Origin: a virus
DNA length: 46,932 nucleotides
Virus genome (UHGV): UHGV-0283311
Direction: 5' to 3' (one strand)
The position numbers and the translations under genes were made by a program. This document shows, piece after piece, positions 5,657-46,932 of the stretch (the stretch's first letter is position 1; every line of letters begins with the position of its first letter). The notes under the pieces were generated by a model. The model did no database searches. It was not told the DNA's origin and saw only the letters and a list, made by a program, of their open reading frames with translations.

Positions 5657-5850
5657 TTATTCTCCCCCTTAAAAGCTTTTTCTAAGTTATCTACGAACTC
5701 ATCATCAATAGGTGTGTCTGTTTTACTCGCAAGGTATCTTGCAAGCCTAAAGAACACTTTCTCAATCATGTATTCACTTAGAAGGGATAAAATGAGTTTC
5801 CAGAAGAAGCTACCTAGATTTTTTAGAAGAATTGCTAGGATTGTAGGCAT
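5653..5850 (-). CDS. small hydrophobic protein
   Basis: 65 aa, hydrophobic N-terminus, RBS gaggtga; stop overlaps next start. Confidence 0.45.
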   Translation of the reverse strand: MPTILAILLKNLGSFFWKLILSLLSEYMIEKVFFRLARYLASKTDTPIDDEFVDNLEKAFKGENK

Positions 5851-5929
5851 TTAATCACCTCATCAGCCAAGATGGTGAGAATACCCATAAAGAATATTAA
5901 CACCATCTTAACAATCAGTCAACAAGGGA

Positions 5930-8317
5930 TTAAGCAGTTCTTACCCAAGCCATTAACTTGTAGAACTGGTTAGTAACACTAAATGCCGAACCAGAACCTG
6001 TGCTACCAGTGTTACCACTAACTGTGTGGCTATGAGCACCAATACCTACAGAGTGGGAATGGTCACCAGCACCGCTTGTAGTACCAGACCACGTGTGTGT
6101 ATGGTTACCAGTTGTGTTAGTGTTAGGGAACTTGTTATCTTTTCTATCAAGCCAGTCAAGAGTTCTTGTCTTGCTGTTGCTAACAGTTGTGTAACCATAC
6201 TGAGCATCACCACCATTAACTAATAACAGACCTAAGTGGTGAGCGTGGTTGCCAGCAGCACTTGTTGTACCACTTACAGAGTGAGAATGACCACCAGTAC
6301 TGTTAGTTCCCTTCGTACCATAATCAAAAGATGAAGTGGTAGCAGAGAAGCTATGGGTATGTGATGGTAAGTTCCCAACAGCTAACGTCACAGAATCTGA
6401 ACCACCAGTTGTAGCAACATCTGAACCGTTTGCTGCTGCAATTCTGATAGTTCTACCAACACCATTATTCAGGTACGTCCAAGTTAGACCAGGCAACGCT
6501 GTGTTAGGGTCAACATTACTGTTAAACCACGTTACAATGCCTACTGGATAGATTTTATTAAGGTCTGTAGAGTCACTAATTGCTGTTGCAATTTTCTGGT
6601 CAGTTTCTACTTTAGTGTATGCACCAATATCTGAAGGGGTTGGTTTAAATGCCGTTGAATACAACTGTGCCTCTCCAACATATGCTCCATCTGACCCATA
6701 AGCGTATGTGAAGACATCAAGACCTCTAGACCCATATGTAAAAGCGATACCTCTGGCATGAGCAATACCAGCAGAATGTGCTACATGGATGGCTAAATCT
6801 TTCAGACCCTGCTCAATAGCGTTGTTTCTTACAAATCCTGAATAATCTTTGTTGAATGATGATGGGTCATCCAGTCTATTAGCTGTCCTTGTCATTAAAG
6901 ATTGGTTTAATAGTTTTGTTTTCAAGAAATATCTAGCATCTAAGTTAGAGAAATCTGAAGGTTGAACTTGACCAGTAATTCTGACATTTTTATCCAACAA
7001 GAAATCATCTTGCATATAAAGCGTAGTTGCAGTTCTGTCGTTACGGATAGTAAACCTTGTTGGGTTGGATGGTTCCCCATTACCGATGTACCACCTTCTA
7101 ACACCATCAGCATTATGACCAGCAAAGTATAGCTCTCTGTCTTGTGTAGTGTTCTTTAGCTGTAATAATGAGCCATTCAGATTGATAACCTGTACAGACC
7201 TGAAAGTGTTTACATCACTTAGTTTAGCAAGATTACTCAAAGTAGCCGCTGGAATGTATCTAGAATCAATGTTAGACCAATCAGAAGGTTGAACTTGACC
7301 AGCAACCCTAAGCTGCTTGTTAACCTCAACAAAACCATTATCAAGTCTAAGATTAGAGCCATACGTATAGTTGTGGATTAATACAGCAGGTGTATTATCA
7401 CCATTACCTACATACCACTTACCAGAGCCATCACTACTTTCACCTTTAATGTATAGTGCACCATTTGCTATAGTATTTTTTAACCTTAATGCGCCGCTAT
7501 TCGTTAAAATTGATACAGCTTGGTTAAACGTATTAACACCACTAAAAGTATTATTCGCAGCTAACTGTGCAAATCTCTGATTAGCCACTGTCTGAGTAAA
7601 GTATCTAGCATCTAAGTTAGCAAAACTTGAAGGCTGAACTTGGCCAGCAATTTGAAGAGTCCTGTTGACTGTCACCAAATTCTCTAAAATAGCAATTGAA
7701 ACGTCGGACTTTACATTCTTTAATACAAGATTATGTGTACCCCTATTATCATTACCTAGATACCATCTGTTAGTACCATCTGCATCTTGACCACGAAGAT
7801 AGAGTGGAGCACCTTGAGTGATATTTTTGATAATGAGTGCTTCATTGTCAGAGAGGATAGCTTGAGTACCTCTAAAGGTGTTATTTACAGCAAGTCTTGC
7901 ATATCTTGCATCATTCTCTTCATTAGTTCTCATACCAAGCTCATTAGGACTTGGCTTATTCAGAGTATGATAAACGGTTGCCGACCTTGAAGCATCTGCA
8001 ATAGTCAGTTTAAGGCCATTTGCGTTAATTTTAAAAGTCTTTAAAACATCCCCAATATTAATCTCAGAAGAGCCTGTTGGGTTAAATACTACCTTACCAC
8101 CATAAAGTAACTTAACAATCCCTAAGTCACCTGTCATAGTGCTACCAGCAATCTGAACAAATCTCTCAAGTTTAAAAGATGCTAAGAAGTCTTGATAGGT
8201 CATTCGACGGTCTTCATCACCTAGCATTTCAGGTCTCTTTTTAACCCTGACATGAAGAAGGTCATCTGAACGGATTGTATCGATTGAGTTTAATTCACTC
8301 AACTTGTAATCTGCCAT
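5930..8317 (-). CDS. tail fiber protein with His-rich C-terminal tip
   Basis: four internal repeats each ending in an Asn/Gly-rich block ([32 protein letters not shown]); C-terminal HxH-rich [32 protein letters not shown]; position in tail module. Confidence 0.7.
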
Positions 8318-34100: not shown

Positions 34101-34177
34101 TGGAGGCGGGTGCAGGAGTCGAACCTGCCGATACCATGCTAATGAGACATGTGAGACGCCCTTTCTCTATACCCGCA
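34101..34177 (-). tRNA. tRNA(CAT): Met, fMet or Ile2
   Basis: loop CTCATTA, D-stem gaga/tctc, 1-72 mismatch; isotype unresolved. Confidence 0.6.
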
Positions 34178-34267
34178 ATTCTTAATGACCAGACCAAATA
34201 TCTTCTTTGTCCGATTAACTTTCAGATGAGTAGATTAAGTTTGCTGTAATTGGTCTTCTGTCAAAAC

Positions 34268-34345
34268 TGGCGTTCCAGAAGGGATTTGAACCCTCAGATA
34301 TCCACTTTGAAAGAGTGGTGACTTTACCGTTTTGTCTACTGGAAC
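34268..34345 (-). tRNA. tRNA-Glu(TTC)
   Basis: perfect acceptor gttccag/ctggaac, perfect anticodon stem ccact/agtgg, loop CTTTCAA. Confidence 0.8.
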
Positions 34346-34352
34346 ATTAATT

Positions 34353-34429
34353 TGGTCTCTGTTGGAGGACTTGAACCTCCGGCCTTACCGCCCCAAACGG
34401 AACGCTCTACCAAGCTGAGCTAAACAGAG
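34353..34429 (-). tRNA. tRNA-Pro(TGG)
   Basis: perfect acceptor and T-stem, D-arm gctc-agcttggta-gagc, loop TTTGGGG. Confidence 0.75.
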
Positions 34430-39488: not shown

Positions 39489-39887
39489 ATGAAGCTTTGG
39501 GCTAGTGACTTTGGGACTTTTAAGTACACTCGTAATGGTTCGCTTGTACGCATCATTGGAAGTAACGTTGTTACAGTTGGAGATAGGGTGCATACAAGGT
39601 TTACTGTTGAGTTGGTTGAGCTATCACCTATTGAGTCTGCTAACAATGGTTTATTCAAGTTTGAAACTTACCATGTAAATGAACATGGGCAGTTTAATAC
39701 TCTAGGTGAAAGTGGTCTCGATATTATTTCAGAGAACCCATTGACAAGAGAGCAACTTGCAGGTTACTATAAAACCATTCTTGAAAGAACTTTGGCGACA
39801 CATGAACATGAAGCCAGATATCACATTGAACGGTGTGAAGTTCTAAAAGCGAAAATCGAACAAGCAGAGAGAGGTTTTTATGAATAA
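39489..39887 (+). CDS. hypothetical protein
   Basis: 132-aa ORF with RBS aaggag. Confidence 0.55.
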   Translation: MKLWASDFGTFKYTRNGSLVRIIGSNVVTVGDRVHTRFTVELVELSPIESANNGLFKFETYHVNEHGQFNTLGESGLDIISENPLTREQLAGYYKTILERTLATHEHEARYHIERCEVLKAKIEQAERGFYE

Positions 39888-42616: not shown

Positions 42617-43045
42617 ATGCAAATCATAGCTGGTCAAGAACTTGACATCATAGATGCAAAAACACAGAAGTACATCGCAACAGTGAAGGCTATAGGGGTC
42701 AGGGATTGGAATACTGAATATCCAATTCAATGCCTTGTGCTGGAAAAGTTTAAAGCTAATGGTATACACTTTTACCACGGTAACTACATCAGCTTTAACA
42801 AAGATGGTTACTGGCGTGGTAGTGACCACCCTCAAGCAAATGAGTTTGATATGCGTCTAGTGATACCACAAAAAGGTAAATCACAAAATGTAAAAGATAT
42901 CCTTGTAGAAGCCTATGCAGAAGGTATAATAGATGTTGTGCATGATGTTGAAAAAGCTTTAAAGCTTGTTATGCCACATTTAGAATCTGGAAAGCTGACT
43001 TTAGAGATGCTTAATAGGGTTATTCGGAGAGCTTATGAAAGTTAA
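42617..43045 (+). CDS. hypothetical protein
   Basis: 142-aa ORF with RBS agaaggta. Confidence 0.55.
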   Translation: MQIIAGQELDIIDAKTQKYIATVKAIGVRDWNTEYPIQCLVLEKFKANGIHFYHGNYISFNKDGYWRGSDHPQANEFDMRLVIPQKGKSQNVKDILVEAYAEGIIDVVHDVEKALKLVMPHLESGKLTLEMLNRVIRRAYES

Positions 43046-43499
43046 AGAAACAGTTCGAAAAGCAATGCTTGACAACTCAACTAAAGACGAAATGTACAAA
43101 GAAATTTGTGATAAGTTAAATTGCTCAAGACATGCTGCTAAGGTTCTTGTACATTGTTTTATCTGGGAATGCTCAGAAGCCTATATGCAATATGTAGCGT
43201 TTGAAAGTTCTCACTTACTAGGTGATGTAGAAGCTGGTGAGAAACTAAAAGAACCTGAGATGAAAACAGTCCCTAAAGTTGGTAATGTATACCCTCTTAA
43301 AGATTTCAAGACTGGAAAGATTGTTGCAAAAGGTGTAGTAGAATCTGTTTATCACGATGGTAAATACTTACTTAAAATATTTGAGTATGATAGCCACTAC
43401 ACACACTTGTGTGGGATTACATTCTTAGTAACAGAAGAAGACCTCATTAAGAACAACGGCAACAAGTTTGCAGTTCCAGCTTACCAAGTTTTACGATAA
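43035..43499 (+). CDS. hypothetical protein
   Basis: 154-aa ORF with RBS ggaga. Confidence 0.55.
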   Translation: MKVKETVRKAMLDNSTKDEMYKEICDKLNCSRHAAKVLVHCFIWECSEAYMQYVAFESSHLLGDVEAGEKLKEPEMKTVPKVGNVYPLKDFKTGKIVAKGVVESVYHDGKYLLKIFEYDSHYTHLCGITFLVTEEDLIKNNGNKFAVPAYQVLR

Positions 43500-43512: not shown

Positions 43513-44061
43513 ATGGAAAAAGATAACTTAAAAGAAGTTGAAGGTAACTACCTAGTCCTTGATTGGAGTGATATTCGGGAAGCACTCTCCGAAGAAAATC
43601 TTGACTGGTTCGAACAAATTATCTTTGCAGTACGGCATAACAGAGAAGTTGAAAATGGTAAAGAGCCACTTGAAGGAATCTTTGTAGAAAGGTCTTATCC
43701 GTTCTATGAAGACACTTTGCAGAAAGTTAAGATGTACTTTAGACAGAAGAACCGTAAAGTAGTCACTATGGTATCTCTTGGTGGACAGAGTATGTCTGTG
43801 ATGGAAGATATCAATCCTAAGAGACCGAGTAAAGGTGTTTGTATAAAAATCACAGGTCATGAAGAGTATATCTCAGCAAGTGATTTTAGTGTATTCTGTA
43901 ATGGTTCTGCTGTCTTTAATGGGTTTCACTATGATATCCGAGTGTATCCAATCAAGGGAGATGATATCATGATGCAGGTATTTGATAACAACAACGGATT
44001 CACTCATTTTTATCAGACAACCAAGTCATCATTAAAAACAGTTCTGGAAACACTGATTTAA
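43513..44061 (+). CDS. hypothetical protein
   Basis: track start 43468 is TTG; first ATG at 43513 lies 14 nt after upstream stop. Confidence 0.5.
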   Translation: MEKDNLKEVEGNYLVLDWSDIREALSEENLDWFEQIIFAVRHNREVENGKEPLEGIFVERSYPFYEDTLQKVKMYFRQKNRKVVTMVSLGGQSMSVMEDINPKRPSKGVCIKITGHEEYISASDFSVFCNGSAVFNGFHYDIRVYPIKGDDIMMQVFDNNNGFTHFYQTTKSSLKTVLETLI

Positions 44062-44072
44062 AATATCTTAAT

Positions 44073-44098
44073 AGCCTCCTTAATTGGGGGCTTTTTAT
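44073..44098 (+). terminator. Rho-independent terminator
   Basis: agcctcc-ttaatt-gggggct followed by ttttta. Confidence 0.6.
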
Positions 44099-44194
44099 TG
44101 AGTAAAATTTACGAAATTTATATTTTTTATAAAATTTTATCGGTTGTCCCAACCTCTGGGTCACCATCATATGTGAACAAAATATCTATCCTTC

Positions 44195-45260
44195 TTAACA
44201 ACCTTTTTAATCTTACTCTCTATATAGTTATATAGTACTATATAGTATCTTAGTAACTACCTAGTGGTCTTAATAGCCCCTCTGTATAATCCTTCTAACA
44301 AGCCCTCTAACAAGCCTTCTTAACAACCTATACAATCACCTTAACCATCTCTCTATACACTCTTAGAAGCTCCTATACACCTCTTAATCTCTATGTCAGC
44401 TATGACACTCTCTATAGGTGTTCACTAGGTGCTACTAAGCCTCTATATAGACTGTTTTAACAAACTTAACAGGAATATCTTTACAGGCCTTATCTCACAA
44501 GGTCTAACACGGTACTAACAAGGTATCTTATAAGCCTGTTATTACCTGTATTTTAGAAAGACTGTATAGGTAATTATTCAGATTTTTAAAATTTTTATAA
44601 AATAGGACTATCAAGTCATTTTTTAGGGTCTTTGAAGGAACTGAAAAATATCTGTAGAAGATGTATATCTGCTTGGTAGCCCTTAACAGCTCCCTTACAA
44701 GTACTTTGCAAAATTTTAAAATATCCTTAACAATCTCTTAACAGTTACTACATCTTCTTAACATCTCTTCAAAGGTCTTAACAGATTCTTAACAGAACTA
44801 ACAAGAGCGTAACAGTTTTCTAACAAGTGCTGAATAGGCTTTACAGAATCTTAACAGATGACTAACAAGAGCTAACAAGTTAATTTTTAAGAGTTATTTT
44901 GTTAAGATAATTAACAAGTTTCTAACAAGTGTTTAATCTTTTTAACAATCTATTAACATGGTCACTACTCTTTCCTTATCGTTCCCTTTCCTTTCTTAGT
45001 GATTCTTTAAACATACCTCTTAAAAGCTCTCTATAGCCCCTTGTAAGCTCTTTTAAACCTCTTCCTAGTAATTACACCCCAACTGTACAGATACCTCTTT
45101 ATAGGGCTTTACAGGGGCTTTAAAGGCTATGTCAAAGGTTCTTACAAGGCTTTTACGTGGTTTTAACAGAGATTTAACAAGGGGCTAACAAGTTGCTAAC
45201 AAGTGCCTTAAAAGCATAACTATGTAGGGATTGTTAAGAAATTGTTAAGAAAATGTTAAG
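44195..45260. repeat. Non-coding region with about 30 copies of TAACA(A/G) in both orientations (iteron-like array)
   Basis: cttaacag, ctaacaag and tgttaag recur at 10-12-bp spacing (e.g. 44777-44830); AT-rich stretches at 44100-44160 and 44580-44610; no ORF of 60 aa or more. Confidence 0.6.
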
Positions 45261-45270
45261 GGGGCTAGCA

Positions 45271-45313
45271 TTTACGTAACTTTATAGCCCCTTTTACGTA
45301 ACTTTAAAGCCCC
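45271..45313. repeat. tandem direct repeat of 21 bp
   Basis: tttacgtaactttatagcccc then tttacgtaactttaaagcccc. Confidence 0.6.
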
Positions 45314-45720
45314 TATAACATACTTTTTAGTGACTATCAAGGGGTTGTTTAGTTATTCACAAGAATACTAATGAGATGATAAAGCTTACACCCTTATAAG
45401 ATTCTTTTAAGTCTCTGGGAAGCTCTAGGAAGGGCTTTTTAGGGTGAGTTAATGCAACCCCTTAAGTTAGGTTGATAAGGCTGTTATAGGGCGTTATAGA
45501 GCGTTTAAGGGGTTGCCCTTCCCTTTCGGGTTATGGGCTTATATTTAAGTTGATTTGATAAGAGGTTATAGAGTAGACTATAGAGTTATTGCTTTTAAGG
45601 TCTGATAAGATTCTGGAAAGGTGAGGGAAAGGGATTGTATAAGGATTCGATAGACGTAAAAAAGCCCCTTTAAATAGGGGCTGTTAGGGTATCTGGGGCT
45701 AAATAGCCCCGCTGCGTCGA

Positions 45721-45969
45721 TTAGTTATAATCTTGTTTGTTGTAGTACAGGGAGACGATTTTTTCTCCCCAATAGTGATAAGTATAACCATCCTTGAGAA
45801 CTTCTTGTTTTGTTTCCTCCCAGAACTCATCCGAAGGATTATAGTCTTTGATGGTCTGACTGATAAGACATTTCACCATTTCAAAGGCGTTATCAGTGCC
45901 TGCAATGTCAAATTTAACATCCAGAGAGGAAAAACCGAACTCGTTAACAGTAGCGCGGATAGTTGCCAT
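45721..45969 (-). CDS. hypothetical small protein
   Basis: 82-aa ORF; AGGAG RBS within the upstream conserved element. Confidence 0.5.
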   Translation of the reverse strand: MATIRATVNEFGFSSLDVKFDIAGTDNAFEMVKCLISQTIKDYNPSDEFWEETKQEVLKDGYTYHYWGEKIVSLYYNKQDYN

Positions 45970-45977
45970 TTTTGAAT

Positions 45978-46035
45978 CTCCTAGTTTAAGGGTTTTATTT
46001 AGTGGGGAGGTTATCGCCTCCCGTTGATTAGTAAT
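45978..46035 (-). promoter_or_regulatory. conserved intergenic element copy 1 (GC hairpin plus RBS)
   Basis: ctcctagtttaagggttttatttagtggggagg-ttatcg-cctcccgttgatt matches copies at 46308 and 46905. Confidence 0.5.
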
Positions 46036-46299
46036 TTACTGCATATTGGCGTATGTTGCAAGCCTTTTTTCGTTGTATTTTGTAAGAATCTCACAAGATA
46101 CAACATCATACTTTGTAACAGCGTTGCCTTTATCGAGGTCAAAAAAGCCAAACGCTTTACCATCTTTGAATCCGACAACTTCGTAAGATTCTTTGATGAT
46201 TTCACCATTGAACAAATCACTTTCGATACGGTGAAATAATGCTACATCTTCTTTGTCGGTTGCAATTTGTAAAAGTGTGGTTAATTCTACGTTTTCCAT
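46036..46299 (-). CDS. hypothetical small protein
   Basis: 87-aa ORF preceded by conserved element copy 2. Confidence 0.5.
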   Translation of the reverse strand: MENVELTTLLQIATDKEDVALFHRIESDLFNGEIIKESYEVVGFKDGKAFGFFDLDKGNAVTKYDVVSCEILTKYNEKRLATYANMQ

Positions 46300-46307
46300 C
46301 TTGATAA

Positions 46308-46365
46308 CTCCAGTTTAGGACTTTATTTAGTGGGGAAGGTCATTCCCTCCCCGTTGATTGACAAT
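46308..46365 (-). promoter_or_regulatory. conserved intergenic element copy 2
   Basis: ctccagtttaggactttatttagtggggaagg-tcatt-ccctccccgttgattgaca. Confidence 0.5.
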
Positions 46366-46896
46366 TTACAGACTTTTAAGTGTCTCGTCAATATCTTTTT
46401 CAATGTCTTTTAAAGTTTTTTCTAAGTTCTTGATATTGAAGGATAAACCTTCACCGAGAGTCTTAGAGTAACCACTAGGACGTAAATTATACAGTTTAAT
46501 TTCTTCCACTTTAAAGAGACTAACTAACTCACCGTTTACATCATAAGCCATTGAAACAGTATTTGCAGGTGCATTGTAAAACTTGTTTAGTGACTTGATA
46601 GAACGTTCATAAGCCATTTTATAACCGTTTAAAAGGTTTTTAACGTGGTTGTGAACGTTTTTACACTCATCTAGATAAATCTCTAAGAATAACGGTAATA
46701 ATTCCGCTACAGCTTGCATAAAGTGAGAGACTACAACGGTTGAGACATTACGACGATGAACGTAATAAGCCCCGTTTTCTGATTTGGTGATTGTTGCGAA
46801 ATGTACCCCATTACAACGAAATTCGTATGTATCTTTTACAGGCTTAGACATTACAGCATTTGAACGAATGAAGTTGATAGCTTGAAATTTGTTCAT
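46366..46896 (-). CDS. hypothetical protein
   Basis: 176-aa ORF preceded by conserved element copy 3. Confidence 0.5.
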   Translation of the reverse strand: MNKFQAINFIRSNAVMSKPVKDTYEFRCNGVHFATITKSENGAYYVHRRNVSTVVVSHFMQAVAELLPLFLEIYLDECKNVHNHVKNLLNGYKMAYERSIKSLNKFYNAPANTVSMAYDVNGELVSLFKVEEIKLYNLRPSGYSKTLGEGLSFNIKNLEKTLKDIEKDIDETLKSL

Positions 46897-46904
46897 TTTA
46901 GAAT

Positions 46905-46932
46905 CTCCAGTTTAGGACTTTATTTAGTGGGG
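46905..46932 (-). promoter_or_regulatory. conserved intergenic element copy 3 (truncated by window end)
   Basis: ctccagtttaggactttatttagtgggg is identical to the first 28 nt of copy 2. Confidence 0.45.

Follow-up and report, generated by a model that had tools for sequence, protein, structure and literature searches.

The gap between two convergent gene blocks

Within the window, by which we mean the whole stretch of 46,932 nucleotides of viral DNA that was analysed, two convergent blocks of genes are separated by a non-coding gap (44062–45720) in which the ORF list holds no credible ORF. The genes on the plus strand stop at 44061 and those on the minus strand stop at 45721, and each block is closed by a terminator-like hairpin with a run of T, located at 44073–44092 on the plus strand and at 45663–45682 on the minus strand; phage KhF2 has an annotated terminator at the site matching the former. 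A small ORF at 44098–44235, annotated in one relative, was judged spurious because its start region is poorly conserved, and an Rfam scan of 43900–45900 at a relaxed threshold returned two chance-level matches only.

Comparison of the region with phage records gave 267 matches, 204 of which extend over at least 80% of its length at ~85–93% identity. The matching records belong to Felixounavirus and Mooglevirus, and short matches are present in Erwinia Kolesnikvirus phages. On sequence grounds, the window is assigned to Felixounavirus, that is to the Felix O1-like myoviruses of the Ounavirinae. Phages of this type are widely used for Salmonella typing, in biocontrol and as engineering chassis. 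The gap is homologous in more than 200 Felixounavirus records, all without gene annotation, and depositors have placed in the homologous gaps terminators and small 'repeat_region' features, and nothing else. In Felix O1 the counterpart is the gap between ORF23 and ORF24 (NC_005282, 12306–13927), where the pentamer TAACA occurs 28 times on the plus strand and 6 times on the minus strand, with the same series of spacings as in the window. Elsewhere in the window, 25 tRNA genes with small ORFs between them are clustered on the minus strand at 29275–34429, upstream of the terminase, portal and structural block.

The direct terminal repeat and its boundaries

It is already known that Felix O1-like phages carry direct terminal repeats (DTRs) of ~0.6 kb, and the DTR sequence of UAB_Phi87 has been published. 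In particular, a DTR of 608 bp was mapped on the virion DNA of this phage by Bal31 digestion and run-off sequencing (PMC4837284), and the sequence given in Fig S1 of that paper aligns end to end with 44673–45257 at 84% identity, a comparison that used 590 nt of the stated 608, taken from the published supplementary sequence. The GenBank record of UAB_Phi87 (87,603 bp version) starts elsewhere than at the DTR. In Escherichia phage vB_EcoM_I14.1 (PP892526), whose direct terminal repeats were derived with PhageTerm (PMC11737134), bases 1–581 equal the last 581 with 100% identity and map to 44675–45265. Several records and an IMG/VR contig start or stop inside the gap at the same two points, and Erwinia phage M7 has an exact DTR of 444 bp at the homologous place. 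A 613-bp DTR has also been reported for Ro111lw (PMC6454146), and short terminal repeats were inferred for Felix O1 by Whichard et al. (PMC3185647); by homology and position, the DTRs of UAB_Phi87, Ro111lw and Felix O1 are all the same element as the one described here. The published descriptions of these DTRs are limited to length and sequence.

By homology to its relatives, the stretch at 44673–45265 (~585–593 bp), of which the window holds one copy, is thus the predicted equivalent of a short exact DTR that occurs at both ends of the virion DNA. Depending on the reference phage, its left boundary falls at 44673–44675 and its right boundary at 45257–45265, with differences of 2–8 nt, and the putative physical ends of the phage genome are in this way placed to about ±8 bp from sequence alone. 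The gap accordingly comprises 611 bp of right-end unique DNA, then the DTR of ~590 bp, and then ~455 bp of left-end unique DNA, and it can be described, by the same homology, as the concatemer-junction or genome-terminus region of a Felix O1-like myovirus. As a side observation, the taxonomy line of PP892526 says Tequintavirus (T5-like), while its sequence is that of a Felixounavirus and matches the window at ~90% identity over the terminus; the labels of the six phages in that announcement were probably confused.

Both boundaries of the DTR carry conserved sequences. The left-boundary box, TGTATATCTGCTT|GGTAGCCCTTAACAG, lies on the plus strand at 44662–44689, with the predicted cut at or beside the bar. 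Its conservation within the genus is 1.0, it is identical or nearly identical in Citrobacter phage Moogle, in the Suspvirus mistaenkt, in a metagenomic relative and in Felix O1, and it is recognisable in the Erwinia phages phiEa104 and M7. The right-boundary box, on the minus strand at 45229–45269, is made of three inverted copies of CTTAACA 11 bp apart, followed by GGGGGC|TAGC, and reads ATTGTTAAGAAATTGTTAAGAAAATGTTAAGGGGGC|TAGC across the boundary itself; it is kept in Moogle, mistaenkt, Felix O1 and phiEa104. Together, the left and right ends of the DTR make up an imperfect inverted repeat, whose arms lie at 44716–44753 and 45222–45259 (38 nt, 82% complementary), a second pair of arms lying at 44680–44711 and 45231–45262. 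As a consequence, both 5' termini read inward (GGTAGCCCTTAACA and GCCCCCTTAACA) start with a G-rich or TAGCCC stretch that is followed by TTAACA, and in M7 both termini read TTAG, then about 21 nt, then GTTAAC. The symmetry of the cut sites is approximate, since the boundary positions differ by 2–8 nt between the reference phages. Directly outside the right boundary there is a 22-bp tandem duplication on the plus strand (45271–45314; two copies of TTTACGTAACTTTAAAGCCCCT in exact phase), which is also found in Moogle and mistaenkt.

The phased repeat array and its conservation

The feature that sets this region apart is a dense array of short repeats. The original prediction had put the number of TAACA(A/G) copies at about 30 by manual counting, and a systematic count gave 25 copies of TAACA[AG] on the plus strand and 4 on the minus strand within 44195–45260. 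In the whole gap, TAACA is present 29 times on the plus strand and 7 times on the minus strand, where the remainder of the window would predict 2.9 on each (Poisson P ~2e-19); no other 5-mer is as strongly enriched. In Markov simulations that follow the dinucleotide composition of the region itself, both strands together carried 5.6 copies on average and 14 at most, compared with the 36 observed. The motif has two variants, CTTAACAR and CTAACAAG, which are defined by the extended forms CTAACAAG, found in 10 exact copies against 0.09 expected, on the one hand and TCTTAACA / CTTAACAG on the other. Overall, a conserved core of 6–8 bp is repeated in ~36 copies over ~1.5 kb. No comparable TAACA cluster was found elsewhere in the 46.9-kb window; a mild cluster at 5850–6250 was rejected, as it is no denser than chance would give and falls within coding sequence.

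The repeats had also been described as often 10–12 bp apart, in helical phase. Indeed, 11 of the 28 successive spacings on the plus strand are exactly 11 bp, while random placement gives a mean of 0.42 such spacings and a maximum of 4. Pairwise distances between copies cluster at 11, 20–22, 31, 42, 51–53 and 60–62 bp, and the periodicity of the array is maximal at 10–10.5 bp. TRF reports short 11-bp tandem arrays in the region; the spacers between copies vary and the cores stay the same. Since counts, simulations and spacings agree, both the number of copies and their phasing had been read correctly, the frequency of the motif being far above chance and its spacing phased. The use of both orientations, likewise part of the prediction, is real but strongly asymmetric, as nearly all copies point one way; the exception is represented by the three inverted copies, 11 bp apart, at 45232–45258.

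The main array occupies 44684–44958 on the plus strand and contains 16 TAACA cores, in the form of CTTAACAR or CTAACAAG, with successive spacings of 44, 11, 20, 20, 11, 9, 11, 11, 31, 11, 10, 39, 11, 20 and 11 bp; between 44728 and 44954, 12 of 14 spacings are in phase, compared with a random mean of 3.2. Further along, four TAACAR copies follow each other at exactly 11-bp spacing on the plus strand (45164–45201). The DTR holds 20 TAACA cores on the plus strand and 4 on the minus strand, and another eight copies lie outside it, on the plus strand of the highly conserved right-end unique segment (44196–44520), up to 480 bp to the left of the DTR. Given that the repeats of UAB_Phi87 and PP892526 map to 44673–45265, the array occupies the DTR and extends leftwards into the adjoining unique DNA. 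Motif copies begin 7–9 nt from both DTR boundaries, the limits of the array match these boundaries, and the orientation of the motif flips at the right one. The limits first given for the array, 44195 and 45260, hold approximately, in that the array exceeds both only slightly, and 45260 falls on the right DTR boundary. What the first description lacked was the terminal-repeat context, which places the array in and around the DTR, at the predicted physical end of the virion DNA. In three relatives (L015, L025 and L028), an insertion of 27 bp (ATAGGATTCGATAGATTCCTATCTCAT, partly palindromic) is found within an CTAACAAG copy just right of the DTR (window ~45339); in the window the same copy is mutated to CTATCAAG, which creates an IHF consensus by chance.

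Other sequence elements accompany the array. A second motif, CYCTATA, has six of its eight window copies in the gap, four of them on the plus strand of the left flank (44218–44450; at 44218, 44351, 44410 and 44441), one inside the DTR (45029) and one in the right flank (45311). In the opposite orientation, where it reads TATAGRG on the plus strand, the motif has five of its seven window copies at 45099–45585, a span that covers the right flank and the rightward portion of the DTR. CYCTATA is also enriched in Moogle, mistaenkt and L037, and in the Erwinia phages a different second motif, CTTAGAAG, is enriched in its place. The AT-rich stretches that had been noticed beside the repeats are present as well, as blocks at 44100–44160 and 44575–44610. 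The latter belongs to an AT-rich block (44575–44635) that lies ~40–100 bp outside the left DTR boundary and has a within-genus conservation of 0.99–1.0; the block at 44100–44160 is poorly conserved (0.57–0.63).

In an alignment of 25 distinct Felixounavirus sequences, the TAACA cores in the DTR are 97.8% conserved, compared with 88.3% for the other DTR positions (Mann-Whitney P ~1e-5, a value that is only indicative as the aligned sequences are related), and most single TAACA copies are kept in 23–25 of the 25. Within the genus, conservation is 0.93–1.0 over 44135–44680, the right-end unique segment. Outside the genus, the motif and its 11/20-bp spacing recur at the same position in Mooglevirus, Suspvirus and Erwinia Kolesnikvirus, even where the surroundings have diverged. 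The motif, the 11/20-bp series and the three inverted boundary copies are kept in Moogle (~76% identity), in mistaenkt and in the metagenomic relative, although identity of the neighbouring protein is as low as 43% in the last of these. The spacing series of the main array recurs in Moogle, mistaenkt and Felix O1, and partly in phiEa104. In phiEa104 and M7, BLAST similarity is limited to ~75–125 bp, yet TAACA is present 21 times on the plus strand and 10 times on the minus strand, with a run of spacings of 22, 11, 20, 20, 20, 9, 11 and 11 bp, and the highest-ranking 7-mer is TCTTAAC, with 14 copies where 0.26 are expected. Thus, four genera keep the motif, the spacing and the orientation pattern, with flanking proteins down to 43–60% identity, and this cross-genus comparison is stronger evidence for selection on the motif than the within-genus P-value.

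The neighbouring gene offers a further comparison. The 82-aa protein encoded on the minus strand at 45721–45969 has 57–64% amino-acid identity in phages such as wV8 and CL1, whose terminus has 86–89% DNA identity; by this measure the non-coding terminus is apparently more tightly constrained than the adjoining 82-aa gene.

Possible functions of the array

The original prediction left two options, an iteron origin or a dense binding array. The second of them agrees with all the findings, namely the enrichment, the 10.5-bp phasing, the motif-specific conservation and the retention in four genera. The first is not supported, in view of the size of the repeat unit and of the failure to find an initiator gene or conserved DnaA and IHF sites. 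An origin would use the repeats as iteron-like initiator sites and the AT-rich blocks as unwinding elements, and in its favour are the large number of phased direct repeats, which adjoin two AT-rich blocks (one of these does not vary within the genus), the short octamer iterons known from phage P4 ori/crr, and a perfect DnaA box (45353–45361) that adjoins an IHF consensus (45335–45347). Phased direct repeats beside AT-rich DNA are indeed what the region shares with the iteron origins of pSC101, P1 oriR and lambda ori and with the octamers of P4 ori/crr. Iterons, as in pSC101, P1 oriR and lambda ori, are however usually 17–22 bp long, number 3–7, are located next to or within the initiator gene and go along with conserved DnaA and IHF sites, and the region departs from them in all these respects. 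Its unit of 6–8 bp at 11-bp spacing is too short, and its ~36 copies too many, for classical iterons, and searches of the flanking ORFs against PHROGs and Pfam recognised no initiator, Rep or helicase-loader family. The gap has one DnaA and one IHF match, both of which are missing or altered in most relatives and in every other genus examined, the 'IHF' site is a mutated CTAACAAG copy, and sites resembling DnaA boxes are not enriched in the window (53 against 67 expected). Cumulative GC skew, which had been proposed as a check, only mirrors the direction of transcription. An origin would also leave the limits of the array and the orientation flip at the DTR boundaries unexplained, and we therefore regard it as improbable.

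Since the array sits in and around the DTR that forms the genome ends, a role in packaging is most likely rather than one in replication. We give an even chance to the reading that the array represents phased binding sites of the terminase complex, which would define both DTR boundaries and thereby serve packaging and end definition. That it is a binding array at all is supported by the ~10-fold enrichment, the ~10.5-bp phasing and the cores that are kept while the spacers differ. Of the features of terminase recognition sites, the region shows a location at or beside the predicted mature DNA end and multiple short repeats in helical phase. The limits of the array and its switch of orientation coincide with both cut positions, which points to the terminase complex. 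According to this model, the repeats would be helically phased sites at which a phage protein binds as an oligomer, and this protein would most probably be the part of the terminase complex that recognises DNA. Wrapping of the DNA along one face of the array would mark the concatemer junction for packaging, and the inverted, inward-facing TAGCCC-TTAACA modules next to both boundaries would direct a pair of cuts, or of staggered nicks in opposite strands, to sites separated by ~590 bp. Synthesis across the repeat would then restore it at either end of every genome that is packaged. Two cuts or nicks with resynthesis of the repeat correspond to the general scheme long proposed for T7-type ends. 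The eight copies up to 480 bp outside the DTR indicate that the array is not strictly a boundary device.

As for the proteins that might be involved, the window encodes a large terminase of the T4 type (TerL; 27229–28845, Terminase_6N/6C), and no small terminase was recognised in searches of the ORFs against PHROGs and Pfam. A 66-aa ORF upstream of TerL was considered as the binder and rejected, as it encodes an acidic helical protein without a DNA-binding signature. Two genes from the array, a 154-aa protein (43035–43499) models as a helix-turn-helix (HTH) followed by a Tudor/SH3-like C-terminal domain, and its N-terminal HTH, similar to LuxR or sigma region 4, is nearly invariant. This protein was not detected by tblastn in the Erwinia phages that share the motif array, and is therefore only a weak candidate binder. 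In a bolder version of the packaging model, which we consider improbable, the array and the inverted modules would be the complete cis machinery with which a T4-type TerL without a recognisable TerS measures and regenerates an exact repeat of ~590 bp by means of a polymerising adaptor and opposed nicks. The HTH and Tudor-like protein would be one candidate for the sequence-specific adaptor. If true, this would provide a tractable model of short exact DTR formation outside the T7 group.

The array could instead serve another phage or host binder with a role at the genome ends other than packaging, such as end protection, a pause or anchoring during ejection, nucleoprotein organisation of the concatemer or titration of a regulator. 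A pause or anchoring signal for ejection has been proposed for the first-step-transfer region of T5. We rate this explanation as rather unlikely, although phasing, conservation and location at the ends would all fit it. TTAACA is one mismatch away from the sigma-70 -35 hexamer, but full promoter-like sites are not in excess (11 sites in a sigma-70 promoter scan against 7.6±2.7 in shuffles), so that this likeness does not make promoters. Similarly, the conserved LuxR or sigma region 4-like HTH and Tudor-like protein at 43035–43499 might be such a binder, but it escapes detection in Erwinia phages with the same array. Two-step DNA transfer is, moreover, not known from the Felix O1-like group, and the symmetric modules at both cut sites would go unexplained. 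Alternatively, the motif might be functionless and have arisen neutrally, as an 11-bp unit slipped or was duplicated in terminal DNA prone to recombination. In favour of this, terminal repeats undergo recombination in each cycle, and TRF finds short 11-bp tandem arrays. The spacers nevertheless differ while the cores are fixed and significantly more conserved, and four genera share the motif, the series of spacings and the pattern of orientation; this core-versus-spacer conservation and the cross-genus retention make neutral slippage highly improbable.

The packaging reading can be set against systems of known kind. Short-repeat arrays at the ends of T7, SRL and SRR, were reportedly described by Dunn and Studier in 1983. 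In T7, the first ~340 bp contain 11 copies of CCTAAAG, three within the 160-bp terminal repeat and the other eight shortly after it, and two further copies lie in unique DNA ahead of the right repeat; the spacing is often 13 bp, and the positions span 17–332 and 39671–39837. SRL and SRR resemble the present array in having a motif of 6–8 bp in ~15–35 copies, mostly in one orientation and regularly spaced, placed both within a short exact DTR and in the unique DNA next to it at the concatemer junction. They differ in the motif, as CCTAAAG is unrelated to CTTAACA/CTAACAAG, in the spacing (~13 bp versus 11 bp, one helical turn, here), in the length of the repeat (160 bp versus ~590 bp here) and in having no inverted copies at the far boundary. 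T7 also has an identified small terminase, gp18, and an RNA polymerase of its own that is involved in junction processing, whereas the phage described here, a myovirus, has a TerL of the T4 type, and no TerS was recognised in it. To our knowledge, the function of the analogous arrays in T7 is not firmly established. A second group of comparable sites includes P1 pac, where seven TGATCA/G hexamers flank the cut, the pacL and pacR boxes of SPP1 and the R-sites of lambda cosB. At these sites the small terminase subunit binds short repeats and bends or wraps the DNA. Clusters of short repeats in helical phase that flank the cleavage position are common to them and to the present region. They are, however, ~100–250 bp long, have 3–7 repeats and lead to cos ends or a headful series, unlike the ~36 copies over ~1.5 kb, two predicted cut sites and exact 590-bp DTR here, where binding is likewise predicted.

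The element is best seen as one of a known kind, that of short-repeat arrays at phage terminal repeats and of terminase recognition sites, and not a new principle. In a literature search of incomplete coverage, no description was found of the TAACAR array and its phasing, of the inverted modules at the boundaries or of the conservation of these features throughout Ounavirinae, and no intergenic essentiality result for Bas63 was found either. In practical terms, the boundary sequences provide a signature for the ends of any Ounavirinae assembly, namely TGTATATCTGCTT|GGTAGCCC on the left and, on the right, three inverted CTTAACA copies with GGGGGC|TAGC. The array itself is a defined and conserved DNA ligand that can be used as bait for the recognition protein.

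Beyond the terminus, the small minus-strand genes at the end of the genome are each preceded by an intergenic element of ~55 nt (45994–46045, 46322–46375 and 46905–46932, the third copy being cut by the end of the window). The element consists of TTTATTTAGTGGGGA..., a GC hairpin (GGGGAGGG/CCTTCCCC), and then CTAAATAAAG with a Shine-Dalgarno sequence. Its predicted RNA fold has an energy of -19.7 kcal/mol (z = -2.0), and the hairpin may serve the early genes in processing or attenuation or be associated with their promoters.
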